A stretch of 64,000 nt of DNA from Candidatus Micrarchaeota archaeon. GTDB taxonomy: Archaea; B1Sed10-29; JAJRYS01. How positions within the stretch are numbered: position 1 is the stretch's first letter; every line of letters begins with the position of its first letter. This document shows, one piece after another, positions 3,005 to 34,080 of the stretch. The stretch is taken from positions 96,001-160,000 of the forward strand of contig CAZXTN010000001.1 in assembly GCA_964643685.1 (NCBI GenBank). The letters are read 5' to 3'. The translations under genes and the position numbers were made by a program. The notes under the pieces are model-generated. The model saw nothing but the letters and a program-made list of their open reading frames with translations. It had not been told where the DNA came from and made no database searches.

Positions 3005-3051
3005 AAAAACTTTTTTCAATTTAATAAATTTTTTTATTGACTAAATAATTT

Positions 3052-3162
3052 GGGCCTGTAGCATAGTTTGGATTAATGCGCGCGGCTTCGGACCGCGAGA
3101 TCAGGGGTTCAAATATGCCTTGCGGATATTTCCGCATGCATGCGAAAATCCTCTCAGGCCCG
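3052..3162 (+). tRNA. tRNA-Arg(TCG) with T-loop intron at 59/60 (~3114-3148, 35 nt)
   Basis: Acceptor GGGCCTG/CAGGCCC; anticodon arm CGCGG-CT-TCG-GA-CCGCG; T-loop split TTCAAA|...CGAAAA|TCCTCT. Confidence 0.92.
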
Positions 3163-4590: not shown

Positions 4591-5367
4591 ATGATGGATT
4601 GGTTGTCAGCTTATTTCATAGATCCTCTTGTAAAAGGCACAGGGTATAATATTGTTAACACTCTTTTTTTTGGAATTGTTTTTATAATTTTTTTATTTAT
4701 TATTGAAAAGGTTTCTGAGAAGATGAAAATAAAATTTGATGAGAAATTATTTTTTTCCCTTGCTCCATTTATAATTCTTGGGGGAGTTTTAAGGGCTTTG
4801 CAGGACACTGGTTTTTTTAATTTCTTGGGCTATTTCAGGTTCTTGTTTGTGACTCCTGGGATTTATTTTCTCATTTTTTCAATTGTTTTAATCAGCTTGT
4901 GGGTTGAGAAAAAAGGAGTTAAGAATTTTGCAGAGTTAAATGGAGTTGTGCTTGCTGCTTTTTTCTTAACAATTGCTTTGCTTGAGAGCAGGAATTGGAG
5001 CGGGTTTTTAATAGCTGTTTCCCTTGCTCTTATTTCTTTTTTTCTGAGTTTTTTGTTATTCAGAAAATTTCTGAAGTCAATGGAAGCTTGGACAGCTGTT
5101 TTTGCTCATTCGCTTGACGCTTGCAGCAGCGTCACTGCAATTTTAATTGTTGGTGGTTTTTGGGAGCAGCATGTGCTTCCTAAATTCTTATTGAATGCTG
5201 GGTTGTTTTGGCTGTTTATTCCATTGAAGATATTATTTGTTTTGTTTGTTTCTCGTTTTATTGAAGAAGAAAGCAGGGGTAATTGGAGATGGCTTTTTTT
5301 ATTTAGCTTAGTAGTGCTTGGCTTGGGGCCTGGAACGCGTGATGCTTTGGCAATACTTTTACATTAA
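4591..5367 (+). CDS. DUF63-like membrane protein
   Basis: GYNIVNT, GGVLRALQD, FVTPGIYF, AHSLD, EQHVL and LGLGPGTRD match my recollection of archaeal DUF63. Confidence 0.75.
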   Translation: MMDWLSAYFIDPLVKGTGYNIVNTLFFGIVFIIFLFIIEKVSEKMKIKFDEKLFFSLAPFIILGGVLRALQDTGFFNFLGYFRFLFVTPGIYFLIFSIVLISLWVEKKGVKNFAELNGVVLAAFFLTIALLESRNWSGFLIAVSLALISFFLSFLLFRKFLKSMEAWTAVFAHSLDACSSVTAILIVGGFWEQHVLPKFLLNAGLFWLFIPLKILFVLFVSRFIEEESRGNWRWLFLFSLVVLGLGPGTRDALAILLH

Positions 5368-12756: not shown

Positions 12757-12801
12757 GCTTCCGTCTCCCAGGCCCAACTTCCTATGGGCGATCGGACAAG
12801 C
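12757..12801 (+). repeat. 10-nt copy of tRNA-Glu 5' end extended into an imperfect foldback hairpin
   Basis: GCTTCCGTCT equals 12827-12836; continues ...GCCCA-ACTTCCTA-TGGGC-GATCGGACAAGC. Confidence 0.6.
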
Positions 12802-13951: not shown

Positions 13952-14133
13952 GGGGCTATAGGGTAGTCATCGCTTACATTAAAAAAAAAGCGACTATAAT
14001 GGTCCATCCTTCCGGCTTTGGGAAAATTCTTCTCAACAGAAGAATTTAAAAACAGCCGGGGACCCCAGTTCGAACCTGCAATGAGTAAACTCACTGAGTT
14101 TTTCTCTTGCAAGAGAAAATCTGGGTAGCCCCA
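13952..14133 (+). tRNA. tRNA-Pro(TGG) with three introns: D-loop 13969-13999, 37/38 14023-14053, 59/60 14075-14119
   Basis: Removing three hairpin inserts gives GGGGCTA-TA-GGGTAGTCTGGTCCATCC-TT-CCGGC-TTTGGGA-GCCGG-GGAC-CCCAG-TTCGAAT-CTGGG-TAGCCCC-A. Confidence 0.9.
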
Positions 14134-14160: not shown

Positions 14161-14280
14161 TTAATTAAACAGAATACACAAGGGTTCCTTCTGCAACTAT
14201 GTTTACTATGCGTTTTGCAGAAGTTTCTTCTGCAACTGCGCTTGCTATGCGTTTTGCAGAAGTGGGGGAGCTTGGAAAAC
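14161..14280 (+). repeat. Degenerate copy of tRNA-Leu(TAA) upstream flank and 5' end, interrupted by two tandem 36-nt hairpins
   Basis: TTAATTAA..AGAA..CAAGGGT and GGAGCTTGGAAAAC match 14286-14328; units CTTCTGCAA...TTGCAGAAG at 14188-14223 and 14227-14262. Confidence 0.85.
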
Positions 14281-14303
14281 TCCCATTAATTAATATAGAA
14301 CAC

Positions 14304-14424: not shown

Positions 14425-14603
14425 CTAATGGGTTTTATGCCCATGGGTTTTGATGCAACTTTTGTCAAAAGTTGCGTTTAAATCCCTTCCCTTGCACTTT
14501 GAAAAAAAATAAAGGGACTAAGCGAAGCGCATGTCGCTGGATTAAATGCAATTTTTGTTAAAAATTGCTGACAATCCCTTCCCTTGCACTAATGGGCTTA
14601 TGC
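14425..14603 (+). mobile_element. Two short palindromic inserts, each followed by a direct repeat of the tRNA-Leu T-loop-to-3' end (att-like)
   Basis: AATCCCTTCCCTTGCACT at 14409, 14481 and 14573; hairpins GCAACTTTT-GTC-AAAAGTTGC and GCAATTTTT-GTT-AAAAATTGC. Repeats are seen directly; mobility is inferred. Confidence 0.65.
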
Positions 14604-15225: not shown

Positions 15226-15407
15226 GCCTCGGTGGCTAAGACAGCAACAAAAACCAACTTTTTTGCTGTGGAAATGGTATAGCGCGTGCTTGGTAACTCT
15301 TTTGAAAAGGAAGAGACGAAAAGCACGAGGCCGCGGGTTCAATTCTGCGTTAAAAAAAATGAAAAAGAAGGAGTTTTTTTGCGCAGGTGAAAATCCCGCC
15401 CGAGGCT
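15226..15407 (+). tRNA. tRNA-Thr(GGT) with three introns: 15/16 15241-15274, 37/38 15296-15321, 59/60 15344-15393
   Basis: GCCTCGG/CCGAGGC acceptor; spliced D-arm GCTAAGTGGTATAGC; CGTGC-TT-GGT-AA-GCACG; T-loop BHB TTCA/TGAA. Confidence 0.9.
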
Positions 15408-15968: not shown

Positions 15969-16164
15969 ATAAATAAGAAAAAACCAAACAATGTTTATAA
16001 ACATTCGCTCATAAAATACAAATAAAAGGCAGGGACATGCAAACAATTAAAAAATTGTTTGAACCCCCTACATTATAAGACTGCTGTTAAAAATGCAGGG
16101 GTGCATGAACAAAGCAAGTTTGTTCAATCCCCAGCTTGCCACTATGACAAGCTATTAAGAACAA

Positions 16165-16389
16165 GCAGGGGTAGCCAAGAGGTCAACGGCGCCAGGTTCA
16201 GGTGAACTTCTTTCAAAAAGAAGTTCTGAAACGCCTGGTCTCTCAGTGAGTTCAAGGGTTCGAAAGCAGCCGTATCCGGCTGGCGGGCTAGACGACGTTC
16301 ACTTCGTTCAGTCGTCTGGTTTTCTTTTTAAAAAAGAAAAAGAGTCCGCTTTCAGCTGGAAACAGTTGACGGGAATCCCTTTCCCTGCA
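16165..16389 (+). tRNA. tRNA-Leu(CAG) with 37/38 intron (16203-16232, 30 nt) and long 59/60 intron (16265-16375, 111 nt)
   Basis: GCAGGGG/TCCCTGC; CCAGG-TT-CAG-G|...|G-CCTGG with BHB TTCA/TGAA; AAGGG-TTCGAA|...|T-CCCTT. Confidence 0.9.
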
Positions 16390-16425: not shown

Positions 16426-16500
16426 GCCGGGGTGGTTCAGCCTGCCCCTTTCTTTTAAAAAAAGAAAGCGACAAGTTCGCGGAAAGAAAAAAGGTTGAAA
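16426..16500 (+). pseudogene. Orphan tRNA-Met 5' exon plus a different intron-like sequence, no 3' exon
   Basis: GCCGGGGTGGTTCAGCC identical to 16516-16532; followed by 58 nt ending GTTGAAA (real intron ends GCTGAAA). Confidence 0.75.
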
Positions 16501-16640: not shown

Positions 16641-16714
16641 AAGGGCTTTATACCCTTTTGGGTTTTGATGCAACTTTTGTTAAAAGTTGCCGAAGATCCA
16701 GCCCCCGGCACTAA
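16641..16714 (+). mobile_element. Palindromic insert followed by a copy of the tRNA-Met 3' end
   Basis: 16659-16690 matches 14444-14475 at 31/32 nt; ATCCAGCCCCCGGCACTAA repeats ATCCGGCCCCCGGCACTAA. Mobility inferred. Confidence 0.65.
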
Positions 16715-16924: not shown

Positions 16925-17115
16925 CTACAATTTGTTGAACAAATTGTATTAAACAATCTATCTTCGGCGACAAGCGCCTTGATAGACTAGTTCAAACTTC
17001 TAACGAAGTTTGAAATCTTTTTTGCCTTACGGCAAAAAAATGAGCACTTCAGCAAGCTGAAGGGGTCAATTGATACAAACTTTTAAAGTTTGTTTTGCCT
17101 TACGGCAAAAAACAA
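16925..17115 (+). ncRNA. Candidate multi-hairpin structured element, copy 1 (tRNA-Thr trailer)
   Basis: First 31 nt identical to 17937-17967, then the same order of hairpins. Confidence 0.55.
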
Positions 17116-17808: not shown

Positions 17809-17936
17809 GCCCCGGTAGTCTAGTGGTTAGGATTCAGCCCTGTCGAGGCTGAGACTCGGGTTCAAAAGTGACTTTTCTTTTCAAAAAAGAAAAGACACCT
17901 GAAAAGAAAACACTACTGAAAATCCCGGCTGGGGCG
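17809..17936 (+). tRNA. tRNA-Asp(GTC) with 59/60 intron (17867-17922, 56 nt)
   Basis: GCCCCGG/CTGGGGC-G; CAGCC-CT-GTC-GA-GGCTG; TTCAAA|...TGAAAA|TCCCGG. Confidence 0.93.
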
Positions 17937-18222
17937 CTACAATTTGTTGAACAAATTGTATTAAACAGACCACACAAGGTAGTCTTATTCAAACTCTTTC
18001 AGAGTTTGAAATGTTTTTGCCTTCGCAAAAAAGCTTTGCTTCAAAGAAGGGTTGAAACAAAAATTATAAAAGACCCCTAAGAGAAGCACATGTGGTCTGC
18101 GAGGGAATCAGAAATTCCCTAGAAATCAATCGCCTAACGGCTCAAACGTTTTTCCCTAACAGGAAAAACTGAAAGGGGCAGCAAGTCCCCTGCGTTTCGG
18201 TGAGGATTCAGGCTGGGGCGCT
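17937..18222 (+). ncRNA. Candidate multi-hairpin structured element, copy 2, bounded by a repeat of the tRNA-Asp 3' end
   Basis: Same hairpin series as 16925-17115; GGCTGGGGCGCT at 17927-17938 and 18211-18222. Confidence 0.55.
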
Positions 18223-18577: not shown

Positions 18578-20050
18578 GTGTATCATTGGGAATTAGTTGA
18601 AGCATTGTTTAAAGAAAATCCATTGGTTAAGCAGCATATTGATTCTTATAACGAGTTTGTGAATAACAAAATTCACACTATAATACAAGAGTTAAATGAA
18701 GAGCAGAGTGAAAAAGAAAGAGTTAGGATAAAGTTTCATAAGGTAAGGCTTGAAAAACCAACTGTCATTGAAGCAGATGGTTCTAAAAGAAAAATAACTC
18801 CAAATGAAGCAAGGTTAAGGAACAGGAGTTACTCTGCATCTATGTATGTTGATTTAAGCATTATTGAAGAAGGAAAGGAAATTGACAGGGATGAGATTTA
18901 CATAGGAGAAATACCAGTGATGGTAAAATCAGATTTATGTCATTTGAAAGGATTGTCAAAAGAAGAGTTAATTGAAAAAGGAGAAGACCCATATGAGCAA
19001 GGGGGTTTTTTCATAATAAGCGGAAGCGAAAGAGTGCTTGTTGCAATTGAAGATCTTGCACCTAATCGTTTAATCATCTCAAAAGAAAACAAAGTAGGAA
19101 AAGAAATTGTAAGTGGAAGAATAACTTCTGTTAGAAAAGGATTCAGAGCAAGAACAGTGCTTGAAAGAAAAGAAGATGGAATAATGCACATTAGTTTCCC
19201 TGCTTCTCCTAAAAATTTAAACTTGTTCATGGTTTTAAAAGCACTTGGGTTTGACACCCCTAAGAAGATAAAAGAAGCTTTCTCAGATGACAAGCAAGTT
19301 ATAAACGACATTCTTTTAAATTTAGAGCAAATTGAAGCTAAAAACCAAGAAGAAGCAATTGACTACATTGGAAAAAAACTAGCAGCAGGCCAAATGGAAG
19401 AGTATAGAAAATCAAGAGCAAGATACGTGTTAGACAACTTCCTGCTTCCTCACTTAGGAGTAAGGGAAGAAGACAGGAAGAAAAAAGCGTATTACCTAGC
19501 ATCTGTAACTGAAAAAATGATAGAAGTAGCACAAGGAAAAAGAGAAGAAGACGACAGAGACAATTATACTAACAAAAGGTTGAAAATAACAGGAGTGCTC
19601 ATGGAAGAACTGTTTAGAACAGCCATAAACGCATTCATCAAAGACATAAAATACCAAATAGACAGGGCACATACAAGAGGCAGAAAAATGCAGATAAAAA
19701 CACTTACAAGACCAGATGCAATGACAGACAGGATAAGATTTGCAATGGGCACAGGACAATGGGTAGGTGGAAGAACAGGAGTTTCTCAATTGCTTGATAG
19801 AACAGCTTACATGGCAACAGTGTCACACTTAAGAAGAGTCCTCTCACCTTTGTCAAAAACCCAACAGCATTTCGAAGCAAGGGACTTGCACCCAACTCAC
19901 CTTGGAAAAATATGCCCAAACGAAACGCCAGAAGGACAATCAGTAGGGCTTGTTAAAAACCTTGCAATAGGCTGCTTCATATCCACAAAAGAAACACAAG
20001 GCTTGGAAAAAGAATTTTCAAAAATGGGCGTGGAATTAATAAAAAAATAA
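18578..20050 (+). CDS. rpoB2: RNA polymerase subunit B''
   Basis: QHIDSYNEF, GGFFIISGSERV, GRTGVSQLL, CPNETPEGQSVGLVKNLA. Confidence 0.97.
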   Translation: MYHWELVEALFKENPLVKQHIDSYNEFVNNKIHTIIQELNEEQSEKERVRIKFHKVRLEKPTVIEADGSKRKITPNEARLRNRSYSASMYVDLSIIEEGKEIDRDEIYIGEIPVMVKSDLCHLKGLSKEELIEKGEDPYEQGGFFIISGSERVLVAIEDLAPNRLIISKENKVGKEIVSGRITSVRKGFRARTVLERKEDGIMHISFPASPKNLNLFMVLKALGFDTPKKIKEAFSDDKQVINDILLNLEQIEAKNQEEAIDYIGKKLAAGQMEEYRKSRARYVLDNFLLPHLGVREEDRKKKAYYLASVTEKMIEVAQGKREEDDRDNYTNKRLKITGVLMEELFRTAINAFIKDIKYQIDRAHTRGRKMQIKTLTRPDAMTDRIRFAMGTGQWVGGRTGVSQLLDRTAYMATVSHLRRVLSPLSKTQQHFEARDLHPTHLGKICPNETPEGQSVGLVKNLAIGCFISTKETQGLEKEFSKMGVELIKK

Positions 20051-31418: not shown

Positions 31419-31546
31419 GCAGAGGTGGCAGAGTGGTAATGCGCTGGTTCACTTTCGCTCGGCGAAATGAACGACTGAACGGAGTGAGGCGAGTCTTGAA
31501 AACCAGTGTCCTCCGGGGCGCTAGGGTTCAAATCCCTACCTCTGCG
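31419..31546 (+). tRNA. tRNA-Ser(TGA) with anticodon-stem intron (~30/31; 31448-31493, 46 nt)
   Basis: GCAGAGG/CCTCTGC-G; spliced CTGGT-CT-TGA-AA-ACCAG; long variable arm; BHB CGCT/GGCG with GGT and AGT bulges. Confidence 0.92.
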
Positions 31547-31560
31547 CTTTACTTTTATAA

Positions 31561-31646
31561 TTTTACAGATTAAGTTGGTTACAAAATGAAATCAATCGCA
31601 AATAAAAGACATGAAGGCTCAAACTTTCATTTTTTATCTGTGAAAA
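31561..31646 (+). repeat. TCAATCGC...GCTCAA hairpin module upstream of Nudix gene
   Basis: Stems TTTTACAGAT/ATCTGTGAAA and AAAATGAAA/TTTCATTTT; relatives at 18122-18154 and 58459-58508. Confidence 0.8.
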
Positions 31647-31661
31647 TGGATGGTTAAAAAA

Positions 31662-32117
31662 ATGAAATACGAGTTGTTCAGAACATTTTTGAAAATCTGC
31701 AGGCACGAGTTTCCATTAGTAGGCGCAACTGCAATAATAACAAACAAGAAAAAAGAAGTGCTGTTAAGTAGAAGGAAAAAAAGCGGGTTGTTTTATCCTG
31801 GTTATTGGAACCTCCCAGGGGGCTTGATTGAAATAGGAGAAACAGCAACAAAAGCCCTTAAAAGAGAAGTAAAAGAAGAGATAGGAGTAGACATAAAAGT
31901 GAAAAAATACACTGGAAGGTATTATGAAAAAAATTTAATTAGAAACAAGAAAATATATTCTACAATTACCCTTCCTTTCTACGCAGAGATAATAAGAGGA
32001 GTTCCAAAACCGCTTGACGAAACAATTGACGTGAAATGGTTCAAACCAAGCGAAATAAGAAAAATGAAATTAGCTTACAATCATAAGGAAATATTAAAAG
32101 ACGAAAAAATAATTTAA
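31662..32117 (+). CDS. Nudix hydrolase
   Basis: Nudix box WNLPGGLIEIGETATKALKREVKEEIG. Confidence 0.93.
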   Translation: MKYELFRTFLKICRHEFPLVGATAIITNKKKEVLLSRRKKSGLFYPGYWNLPGGLIEIGETATKALKREVKEEIGVDIKVKKYTGRYYEKNLIRNKKIYSTITLPFYAEIIRGVPKPLDETIDVKWFKPSEIRKMKLAYNHKEILKDEKII

Positions 32118-32128
32118 AGGATATAAAA

Positions 32129-32185
32129 ATGTATGAACTTTTTGAACACAAGCAAACAAACTTGTTTGTTTGCGGTGTCGAATAA
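32129..32185 (+). pseudogene. Relic copy of archease first 7 codons fused to a hairpin (18-codon mini-ORF)
   Basis: ATGTATGAACTTTTTGAACAC (MYELFEH) versus gene ATGTACGAATTATTCGAACAC; then GCAAACAAA-CTTG-TTTGTTTGC. Confidence 0.7.
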
Positions 32186-32199
32186 TGAGGGATAAGGTT

Positions 32200-32613
32200 A
32201 TGTACGAATTATTCGAACACACGGCTGACATAGGCGTGCGCGGATATGGAAAAACAATTGAAGAAGCATTTGAAGAAACAGCAAAAGCAATGACATCAAT
32301 ACTAGTAGACCTGGACACAATCGAAGAAAAAAAGACAATTAAAATAGAAGCAGAAGCAGACACCCCTGAAGAACTTCTATTCGAATGGCTGAATGAAATA
32401 CTAGCACAAATAGACATTGAAGGGATGATATTTAAAAAATTCAAAATAACAAAACTAAAAAACAACAAGCTGGAAGCAGAGTTGACAGGCGAACAACTTT
32501 CACCTGAAAAACACCACACTAAAACGCAAGTAAAAGCAGCTACTTATTCACAGCTAAAAGTATACAAAGATGAAAACGGGCGCTGGATAAGCCAATGCAT
32601 CGTAGACGTCTAA
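32200..32613 (+). CDS. Archease
   Basis: YELFEHTADIG, VKAATY, C-terminal IVDV; directly upstream of rtcB. Confidence 0.95.
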   Translation: MYELFEHTADIGVRGYGKTIEEAFEETAKAMTSILVDLDTIEEKKTIKIEAEADTPEELLFEWLNEILAQIDIEGMIFKKFKITKLKNNKLEAELTGEQLSPEKHHTKTQVKAATYSQLKVYKDENGRWISQCIVDV

Positions 32614-32646
32614 AAAAAATCAAAAAAATTGGAGGTGTGCGGAAGT

Positions 32647-34080
32647 ATGGACTTAGCACAATTAAACAAAATATCAGAATACGAATGGGAAATAGAGCAA
32701 ACAGGAAACATGAACGTACCTGGAAAAATATTCGCTTCACAGTCACTAGTTGAAGCAATGGGAGACAAGGTAAAAGAACAGATTCAAAACGTGGCCCAAT
32801 TGCCAGGAATACAAAAAGCAGCAATGGCAATGCCAGACGCCCACTGGGGCTACGGGTTCCCAATAGGAGGAGTAGCAGCATTTGACCCTGAAGAAGGAGG
32901 AGTCATCTGCATGGGAGGAGTTGGCTACGACATCTCATGCGGAGTAAGGACACTTAAAACAAACATGACACTGGAGGAAATACAGCCTTACTTAGAGCCG
33001 CTAGCAGATGAATTATTTAAAACAGTACCAGCAGGGCTCGGAGTGCATGGAAAAATAAAATTAAACGTCGAGCAATTAGATGAAGTTTTAGTAAACGGAG
33101 CAGAATGGGTTATTGAAAAAGGATATGGCTTAGAAGAAGACTTGGAATACACTGAAGAAAGGGGAAAAATGGGAGGAGCAGACCCAACAAAAGTTTCATA
33201 CAAAGCAAAAAAAAGACAATTTAAAGAGATAGGAACACTCGGCTCAGGAAACCATTACCTAGAAATACAATACGTTGATGAAATCTATGATGAAAAAATA
33301 GCAAAAATGTATGGATTGGAAAAAAACCAAATAGTAATTTCACTGCATTGCGGTTCAAGAGCACTCGGACACCAAATAGGAGTTGATTACACAAAAACGC
33401 TGACAGAAGCAGCTGAAAAATACAAGCTAAATCTACCAGACAAAGAATTGGCAGCAGCTCCAATCAACTCGCCAGAAGGACAAGATTACTACGCTGCAAT
33501 GAAAGCAGGAGTAAACACAGCACTTGCAAACAGGCAAGTGATAGGTCACTTGGCAAGAACAGCATTTGAAAAAATAGTTCCAAACAGCGAAGTAAAAATG
33601 TTCTATGACATTTCACACAACACATGCAAAGAAGAAGAACATGTGATCGGCAACAAGAAAAAGAAATTATTCGTGCACAGGAAAGGGGCGACAAGAGCAT
33701 TCGGCCCAGGCAGAAAAGAACTGCCAAAAAAATACATGCAAGCAGGACAGCCAGTATTAATAGGCGGAACAATGGGAACATCTTCTTTCATTTTAGCTGG
33801 AACAGAAGAAGGAACTGAAAAAACATTCGGAAGCGCCTGCCACGGAGCAGGGAGAGGAATGAGCAGGAAACAAGCTAAAAAACAATTCCACGGAGAAAGC
33901 ATAGTAAGCCAGTTGAAACAGCAGCAGAAGATAATAGTAAAAGCCCATTCAGCAGCAGGAGTAGCTGAAGAAGCGCCAGGAGCTTATAAGAATGTAGAGG
34001 AAGTGGTAAATTCCGTGCATTACACTGGCTTAGCTAAAAAAATAATCCGCTTAAAGCCACTAATAAACATTAAAGGATGA
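32647..34080 (+). CDS. rtcB: RNA-splicing ligase RtcB
   Basis: MPDAHWGYGFPIG, GYDISCG, GSGNHY, HCGSR, HRKGAT, CHGAGR, EEAPGAYK. Confidence 0.97.
   Translation: MDLAQLNKISEYEWEIEQTGNMNVPGKIFASQSLVEAMGDKVKEQIQNVAQLPGIQKAAMAMPDAHWGYGFPIGGVAAFDPEEGGVICMGGVGYDISCGVRTLKTNMTLEEIQPYLEPLADELFKTVPAGLGVHGKIKLNVEQLDEVLVNGAEWVIEKGYGLEEDLEYTEERGKMGGADPTKVSYKAKKRQFKEIGTLGSGNHYLEIQYVDEIYDEKIAKMYGLEKNQIVISLHCGSRALGHQIGVDYTKTLTEAAEKYKLNLPDKELAAAPINSPEGQDYYAAMKAGVNTALANRQVIGHLARTAFEKIVPNSEVKMFYDISHNTCKEEEHVIGNKKKKLFVHRKGATRAFGPGRKELPKKYMQAGQPVLIGGTMGTSSFILAGTEEGTEKTFGSACHGAGRGMSRKQAKKQFHGESIVSQLKQQQKIIVKAHSAAGVAEEAPGAYKNVEEVVNSVHYTGLAKKIIRLKPLINIKG

Follow-up and report, generated by a model that had tools for sequence, protein, structure and literature searches.

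The analysed window is a stretch of 64,000 nt of AT-rich DNA (GC content about 36%), the plus strand of which is strongly A-rich. It encodes core archaeal genes, among them a split rpoB, rpoA, EF-2, EF-1alpha, ribosomal protein operons and SecY. The best named matches of its EF-2 were proteins of Ca. Micrarchaeota at 74% identity, closer relatives (77–83% identity) being known as proteins only, and a search of the genome collection with RpoA′ returned Micrarchaeota MAGs as the best loci, at 58% or less. Judged by the EF-2 and RpoA′ matches, the organism is a Micrarchaeota-like DPANN archaeon. A set of 80 related loci (1,328,735 nt, 1.33 Mb) served for comparison; no synteny with the tRNA cluster of the window was detected in the RpoA′ loci. 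Between positions 20000 and 64000, the plus strand carries nearly all genes, the AT skew is about 0.4–0.6, and the coding strand displays very strong purine loading. An N-terminal truncation of eIF2-gamma was suspected and ruled out, its frame being open from 61635.

The number of tRNA genes recovered in the window varied with the method: default ARAGORN reported 3 and Rfam at its gathering score 5, while our own scan for acceptor stems and T-arms identified 16. Fourteen of these 16 genes are interrupted, with at least 22 introns in total, located in the D-loop, anticodon loop and T-loop; some D-loop coordinates are approximate, including those that entered the 22-intron shuffle test reported below. 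Because a permissive scan for bulge–helix–bulge (BHB) motifs yields many spurious multi-intron solutions, only the solutions with the fewest introns were kept. A T-loop intron at position 59/60 was found in half of the mapped genes (8/16), all sharing the junction pattern TTCRAA / ... YGAA-AA / T. The same pattern recurs in about a dozen tRNA genes of related DPANN loci, where a few of the 18 ARAGORN-confirmed candidates look like a tRNA followed by a downstream fragment with no intron.

The tRNA-Leu(CAG) gene (16165–16389, plus strand, 225 nt), detected by the acceptor/T-arm scan and ARAGORN, carries two introns. Its exons occupy 16165–16202, 16233–16264 and 16376–16389, the last base being the discriminator A. 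The first intron (16203–16232, plus strand, 30 nt; ARAGORN i(40,30)) is a canonical 37/38 intron with a strict hBHBh′ motif, comprising a 4/4 central helix (TTCA/TGAA), an outer helix of 5 bp and an inner helix of at least 8 bp. The second, at 16265–16375 (plus strand), is a 111-nt insertion at 59/60 of the T-loop, as the initial annotation had proposed; its coordinates and sequence proved correct. ARAGORN calls tRNA-Leu(cag) once this insert is removed, and removal of both introns restores a canonical 84-nt class II tRNA-Leu(CAG).

In the BHB of this T-loop intron (hereafter the Leu intron), the central helix is 4/4, pairing 16259–62 (TTCG) with 16370–73 (CGGG) through two G·U pairs, the 3-nt bulges lie at 16263–65 and 16374–76, and the 5-bp T stem serves as the outer helix. 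The inner helix is not flush (h2 = 0): it starts after one G/A mismatch, continuing with CAGC/GTTG, and the motif is therefore of the relaxed form. Since GAA is repeated at both junctions, cuts from 56/57 to 59/60 give the same product; 59/60 is the sole cut position that fits the BHB motif in this gene, and the GAA repeat is explained by the BHB register. The restored cloverleaf, the two 3-nt bulges flanking a 4-bp helix and the recurrent insertion site are all features of archaeal BHB introns. In the same register, seven other genes of the window (Arg, Gly, Gln, Pro(TGG), Thr(GGT), Asp and Ser(GGA)) carry T-loop introns, each a single rod of 32–56 nt. The Leu intron is thus predicted to be a large but ordinary member of the protein-spliced archaeal kind.

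Hardly any credence is due to the alternative that tRNA-Leu(CAG) is a decaying relic from which the 111 nt are no longer spliced. In its favour, tRNA fragments abound in the cluster, the BHB has an imperfect inner helix, and the insert contains an oligo-T tract, TTTTCTTTTT, that could serve as an archaeal terminator. Against this, the exons are intact, the acceptor and T stems are perfect, the central helix and bulges sit in the exact register of the seven other genes, and no second tRNA-Leu(CAG) exists in the window. T runs of 5–7 nt occur on the coding strand inside tRNA introns at 15375–15381, 16320–16328 and 14095–14099; given their resemblance to archaeal termination signals, either read-through is efficient or termination differs in this organism.

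Micrarchaeota are known for introns of this type, and the tRNA introns of Ca. Micrarchaeum acidiphilum ARMAN-2 provide a close parallel to the Leu intron. [quoted passage not shown] As in ARMAN-2, many tRNA genes are disrupted here, some by several introns, and the 59/60 introns share with reported examples such as that of pre-tRNA-Cys(GCA) the phylum-level group, the T-loop insertion point and the relaxed BHB (PMC3239211). Unlike the 13-nt ARMAN-2 example, the Leu intron spans 111 nt and bears a branched apical domain (PMC3239211).

No Rfam family was detected in the Leu intron at E-values up to 5, it contains neither TGATGA nor CTGA, the C and D boxes that would mark a box C/D guide, and the phage collection held no match to it. 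In blastn searches of the 80 related loci with the intron and its inner domain, the best E-values were 0.054–0.10, and a second copy of either was absent from the window and from these loci. MITE-like elements would be recognised by multiple copies, by terminal inverted repeats more extensive than the fold requires and by a target-site duplication; no near-identical copies that would mark a MITE- or IS-derived intron were found. No orthologous tRNA-Leu(CAG) or tRNA-Ser(TGA) gene, and no tRNA-Leu(CAG) with a T-loop intron, was detected in the 80 loci. Two candidates called tRNA-Ser(tga) by ARAGORN, in loci L011 and L013, were re-read as tRNA-Thr(TGT) with long canonical introns.

The minimum free energy (MFE) structure of 16265–16375 computed with RNAfold (−42.9 kcal/mol, z = −4.28; none of 200 shuffles was as stable) contains exactly the nested hairpins listed in the initial annotation. 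Two outer hairpins, 16267–72/16277–82 (CAGCCG/CGGCTG) and 16352–58/16363–69 (TCAGCTG/CAGTTGA, one G·U), flank a 7-bp stem, 16283–89/16343–49 (GCGGGCT/AGTCCGC, one G·U), which encloses two further hairpins: 16290–96/16311–17 (AGACGAC/GTCGTCT, with a 14-nt loop) and 16320–28/16332–40 (TTTTCTTTT/AAAAGAAAA). When the whole pre-tRNA is folded, pairing between the two outer hairpins can instead produce a long basal rod, topped by the 7-bp stem with its two apical hairpins. Folded separately, the inner 67-nt domain (16283–16349, plus strand), i.e., the closing stem and the two apical hairpins, reaches −22.9 kcal/mol, and the remaining outer 44 nt reach −20.3. This architecture agrees with that of a normal rod intron plus an additional tip domain, and the folds make the inner 67 nt a candidate secondary insertion at the tip of a simpler rod. 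A single UUU bulge with no partner bulge flanks the inner domain at 16350–52. A search for a nested BHB around the domain gave two trivial candidates only, both inside hairpins.

The second apical hairpin (16320–16340, plus strand) belongs to a recurrent T-rich/A-rich type. Three sites in the window (16321, 16449 and 17874), all within the tRNA cluster, fit the pattern TTTCTTTT-N(0-8)-AAAAGAAA, against an expectation of 0.03, and none of 100 shuffles gave three occurrences; TTTCTTTT itself is found only nine times on the plus strand of the window. The recurrence that had been reported from the sequence at about 16449–16467 and in the Asp intron was thereby recovered, and it is non-random. Of the two further copies, both on the plus strand, one (16448–16468) belongs to no current intron and lies in the spacer 3′ of a duplicated first exon of tRNA-Met (16426–16444), and the other (17872–17894) lies in the 56-nt T-loop intron of tRNA-Asp(GTC) (17867–17922). 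A fourth hairpin of this design is found in the T-loop intron of Pro(TGG) (14100–14119). Four of the five loci with a perfect 8-bp hairpin of a pyrimidine and a purine arm are tRNA introns or the Met relic.

The first apical hairpin contains a 17-mer (16299–16315, plus strand), made up of 12 nt of the 14-nt loop and 5 nt of the 3′ stem arm, that matches the reverse complement of 31471–31487 (numbered on the plus strand) at 16 of 17 positions, as claimed at the outset. This partner lies in the intron of tRNA-Ser(TGA) (31419–31546, plus strand; Rfam tRNA, 45.6 bits), which ARAGORN reads as a single intron of 46 nt, i(31,46). The Ser intron can be placed at 32/33 (31450–31495) or at 31/32 (31449–31494), and its BHB is weak, the former placement having a central helix of 3/4, an outer helix of 2 bp and an inner helix of 0. 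Similarity between the two introns ends abruptly on both sides of the 17 nt, and the flanks are unalignable. Because both ends of the Ser intron can pair, its start, GTTCACTT, has an 8/8 match to the Leu loop in direct orientation as well.

Against the whole window on both strands, BLAST rated the match as marginal, with E-values of 0.079 and 0.031. With up to 3 mismatches allowed, the Ser segment is the sole other match to the 17-mer in the window (0.22 expected), and two matches were obtained in 0 of 100 shuffles. When the Leu intron was shuffled and compared with the 15 other pre-tRNAs, 18 of 1000 trials reached the score of the match. In an all-versus-all comparison of the 22 mapped introns (908 nt), 16/17 was reached in only 5 of 1500 shuffles, with 17-nt windows restricted to those with at least 6 G/C, a filter chosen after the match had been seen. 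The best other intron pair reached 14/17, as did 62% of the shuffles. Across 4565 nt of tRNA-associated non-coding DNA, the pair is the sole non-palindromic long-range inverted match of at least 15/17; inverted sharing of modules is therefore not general here. A third copy was absent from the window (up to 3 mismatches) and from the 1.33 Mb of the related loci (up to 2 mismatches), where the 2 matches at 3 mismatches and 26 at 4 are at chance level (about 33 expected by our own arithmetic), and blastn of the Ser intron against the same loci returned nothing at E-values up to 1.

These figures bear on the possibility that the match is a coincidence, the Leu intron being merely long and structured and its T-rich/A-rich hairpin reflecting the ease with which T-run/A-run stems evolve in AT-rich RNA. 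The marginal window-wide E-values, the freedom of the first reading to compare anything in 64 kb, the missing third copy, the lack of similarity beyond 17 nt and the unremarkable next-best intron pair all lend themselves to such an account. It becomes harder to uphold when only introns are compared, and the match falls within sequence of other introns, which makes up roughly 1% of the window, and has no equal in the tRNA-associated DNA. We regard coincidence as possible but doubtful: the match is probably, though by no means certainly, not due to chance. The initial annotation had staked its claim on further copies and on significance; no further copies were found, and the match is nominally significant. 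It is thus an isolated, nominally significant oddity.

Since its one mismatch, a U in Leu opposite a G in Ser, is a U·G wobble, the match equally describes RNA complementarity. The predicted Leu/Ser duplex comprises 18 bp (16 Watson–Crick and two G·U pairs; local energy −30.7 kcal/mol) and lies largely between unpaired loops of the two introns, 12 of the Leu bases being in the 14-nt loop and 11 of the 17 Ser bases being unpaired in the MFE fold. The exposed Leu loop, possibly on an excised circle, could thus pair with the intron of the Ser(TGA) pre-tRNA for a function. The sharp edges of the match recall guide–target pairs, the 5′ splice site of the Ser intron, with its weak BHB, is hidden within a hairpin which formation of the duplex would open, and the tRNA-Trp intron of Haloferax acts as a methylation guide (PMC4090602). 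Like that box C/D guide intron, the Leu intron would have bases that pair with another RNA segment (PMC4090602); unlike it, the Leu intron has neither a C nor a D box, and its would-be target is another intron. We nevertheless consider a functional pairing very unlikely: it would have no known mechanism, one wobble-compatible mismatch is weak evidence, and whole-molecule duplex energies are uninformative. The latter were discarded as evidence after 22 of 500 shuffles did as well, because long spurious pairings dominate the RNAduplex energies. More improbable still is the specific form in which the 14-nt loop is a trans-acting antisense element that, once excised and perhaps stable as a circle, would open the Ser hairpin through the 18-bp pairing and let the weak BHB form. 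If true, the intron of one tRNA would help the splicing of another pre-tRNA, and the 17-mer pair bears on whether introns interact by base pairing. The 17-mer itself may equally be a short DNA-level copy or the product of selected complementarity.

The initial annotation had gone further and taken the inverted orientation to favour DNA-level insertion over simple reverse splicing. This argument proved weak, as five of the matched bases belong to a palindromic stem: because 5 of the 17 lie in a stem arm (AGACGAC/GTCGTCT) that reads alike on both strands, orientation rests on 11 of 12 loop bases. Hairpin loops can moreover be inverted between their arms, and small inversions arise at such loops. 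To our knowledge, reverse splicing is no established route for protein-spliced introns in any case, and intron gain is already supposed to occur at the DNA level (PMC4090602). The broader proposal, that introns grow by accreting modules, was borne out in part. The Leu intron is composite, its inner 67 nt fold on their own and the T-rich/A-rich hairpin recurs. Module accretion in the Leu intron is plausible, as an inference from one sequence. The 17-mer match, probably real but isolated, is no proof of general accretion and says little on orientation-specific insertion.

Other shared modules provide a stronger case than the 17-mer. A 32-nt piece, consisting of GGTTTTGAT and a 9-bp hairpin, recurs with 97% identity at 14444 and 16659, where it adjoins tRNA-Leu(TAA) and tRNA-Met; each copy sits just upstream of a second 3′ exon copy of the preceding tRNA. 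The underlying motif consists of GGTTTTGRT and, 3′ of it, a hairpin of 9 bp in which CTTTT/AAAAG is invariant and the outer pairs co-vary; the window carries it at 14446–14476 and 16661–16691, with a diverged copy at 14539–14568. It also occurs in two distant Micrarchaeota MAGs, in which the long canonical tRNA-Thr(TGT) introns are marked by it at both ends, in inverted arrangement (L011: 4825–4855, minus, and 4893–4922, plus; L009: 2963–3005, minus, and 3035–3083, plus). Compensatory stem changes are seen in L011 and L009, and in the window the motif marks relic 3′ exons. Among 40 GGTTTTGRT sites in 1.39 Mb, four carry the hairpin, and a covariance model of the motif also matches L009 and L069 with E-values of 0.003–0.007.

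Locus L069, from a Woesearchaeota MAG, contains two tRNA genes (L069:2418–2620 and L069:5526–5715) with T-loop introns of 93 and 84 nt. These introns align over their whole length, with a mean column identity of 80% including the exon flanks, and the pair is a clear instance of intron copying between genes in DPANN. Fujishima et al. reportedly described, in 2010, transposed intron families of Thermoproteales with near full-length similarity in the same orientation. As in those families, introns of different tRNA genes in the window have sequence in common and gain at the DNA level is assumed; unlike in those families, only 17 nt are shared here, and inverted. Similarity of about 70–80% or more over most of the intron, as would mark a family of the Thermoproteales type, was not found for the Leu intron.

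Copies of terminal tRNA exons are scattered through the cluster at 12757–12768, 14484–14495, 14576–14587, 16426–16444, 16698–16709 and 18208–18219, each 70–290 nt from the gene it matches. The 5′ exon copies are those of Glu and of Met, the latter stopping precisely at the D-loop intron site and continuing 2 nt further as in the spliced form. The 3′ exon copies derive from Leu(TAA) (two), Met and Asp; they start at T-loop position 60 and extend a few bases into the downstream flank. With the distal Met copy, the T stem would be all Watson–Crick. These copies resemble remnants of earlier gene versions that bore introns, or of integration events. Similar direct repeats of tRNA end fragments beside intron-bearing tRNA genes are reported from Caldiarchaeum (PMC3293823). 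In that case, the repeats flank a 1.8-kb element with a recombinase (PMC3293823); here they are 70–290 nt apart with no gene between them. The duplicated terminal exon pieces show directly that the DNA around these tRNA genes is turned over. Relics, motif and L069 introns agree with DNA-level turnover of the kind already supposed in the field (PMC4090602; PMC3293823); an inverted insertion is not singled out by them.

From these modules one could argue that the introns are built of small mobile hairpin units that insert at the DNA level either way round, with the Leu intron as a stack of them. The domain architecture of that intron, the T-rich/A-rich hairpin in three places, the GGTTTTGRT hairpin near Leu(TAA) and Met as well as at the ends of the tRNA-Thr(TGT) introns of two MAGs, and the full-length homology of the L069 pair are all in keeping with it. 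BHB rods have inverted-repeat ends by construction, however, hairpin arms read alike on both strands, and the tRNA-associated DNA of the window holds a single non-trivial inverted match. [quoted passage not shown] We therefore consider a general system of mobile modules unlikely.

Instead, we favour, with middling confidence, the reading that 16265–16375 is a BHB intron with an extra tip domain and that the 17-mer is, most simply, an isolated DNA-level patch. On folding of the pre-tRNA-Leu, T-loop bases 54–57 would pair with the last bases of the intron and expose the two 3-nt bulges beside the T stem. A splicing endonuclease of broad specificity would cut both bulges, after which RtcB and archease would join the exons and probably circularise the intron. 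The intron would owe its length, twice that of its neighbours, to the self-folding 67-nt domain at the tip of the rod, of whose two hairpins one would be the T-rich/A-rich motif recurrent in the cluster and the other would hold the 17 nt that match the Ser(TGA) intron in inverted orientation. The patch itself may have been copied at the DNA level, e.g., by templated repair, a template switch or a flipped hairpin loop.

Both joining factors are encoded in the window. The gene for the tRNA-splicing ligase RtcB lies at 32629–34080 on the plus strand (Pfam PF01139, E = 7.6e-168), and that for archease (Pfam PF01951, E = 1.2e-45) just upstream, at 32170–32613. Of 76 purine-rich ORFs with a length of 90 aa or more, 52 were scanned, and no splicing endonuclease gene was detected in these. 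The tRNA-Ser(TGA) gene, whose non-canonical intron is weakly structured, precedes the archease and RtcB genes by about 620 nt, with a NUDIX gene in between (31419–34080).

With respect to how archaeal tRNA introns arrive and grow, the window combines introns, duplicated exons and a hairpin motif common to several genes and genomes. With sister genomes, the rod and tip domain of the Leu intron and the exon relics would give gain, growth and loss as presence/absence events.

Further repeated elements occur beside the tRNA genes of the cluster. Directly after tRNA-Thr(TGT) and tRNA-Asp, an element of about 110 nt is common to 16925–17040 and 17937–18040; it has no Rfam match and consists, in order, of a near-palindrome (ACAATTTGTTGAACAAATTGT), a hairpin with compensatory changes and a T-run/A-run hairpin. 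The region 5′ of tRNA-Leu(TAA) (14184–14300) contains hairpins in a 39-nt tandem repeat, together with a diverged copy of the D-arm. Two mini-helices 5′ of tRNA-Leu(CAG) (16030–16135) each display an acceptor-like GCAGGG start, a hairpin and an AAYCCCC end.
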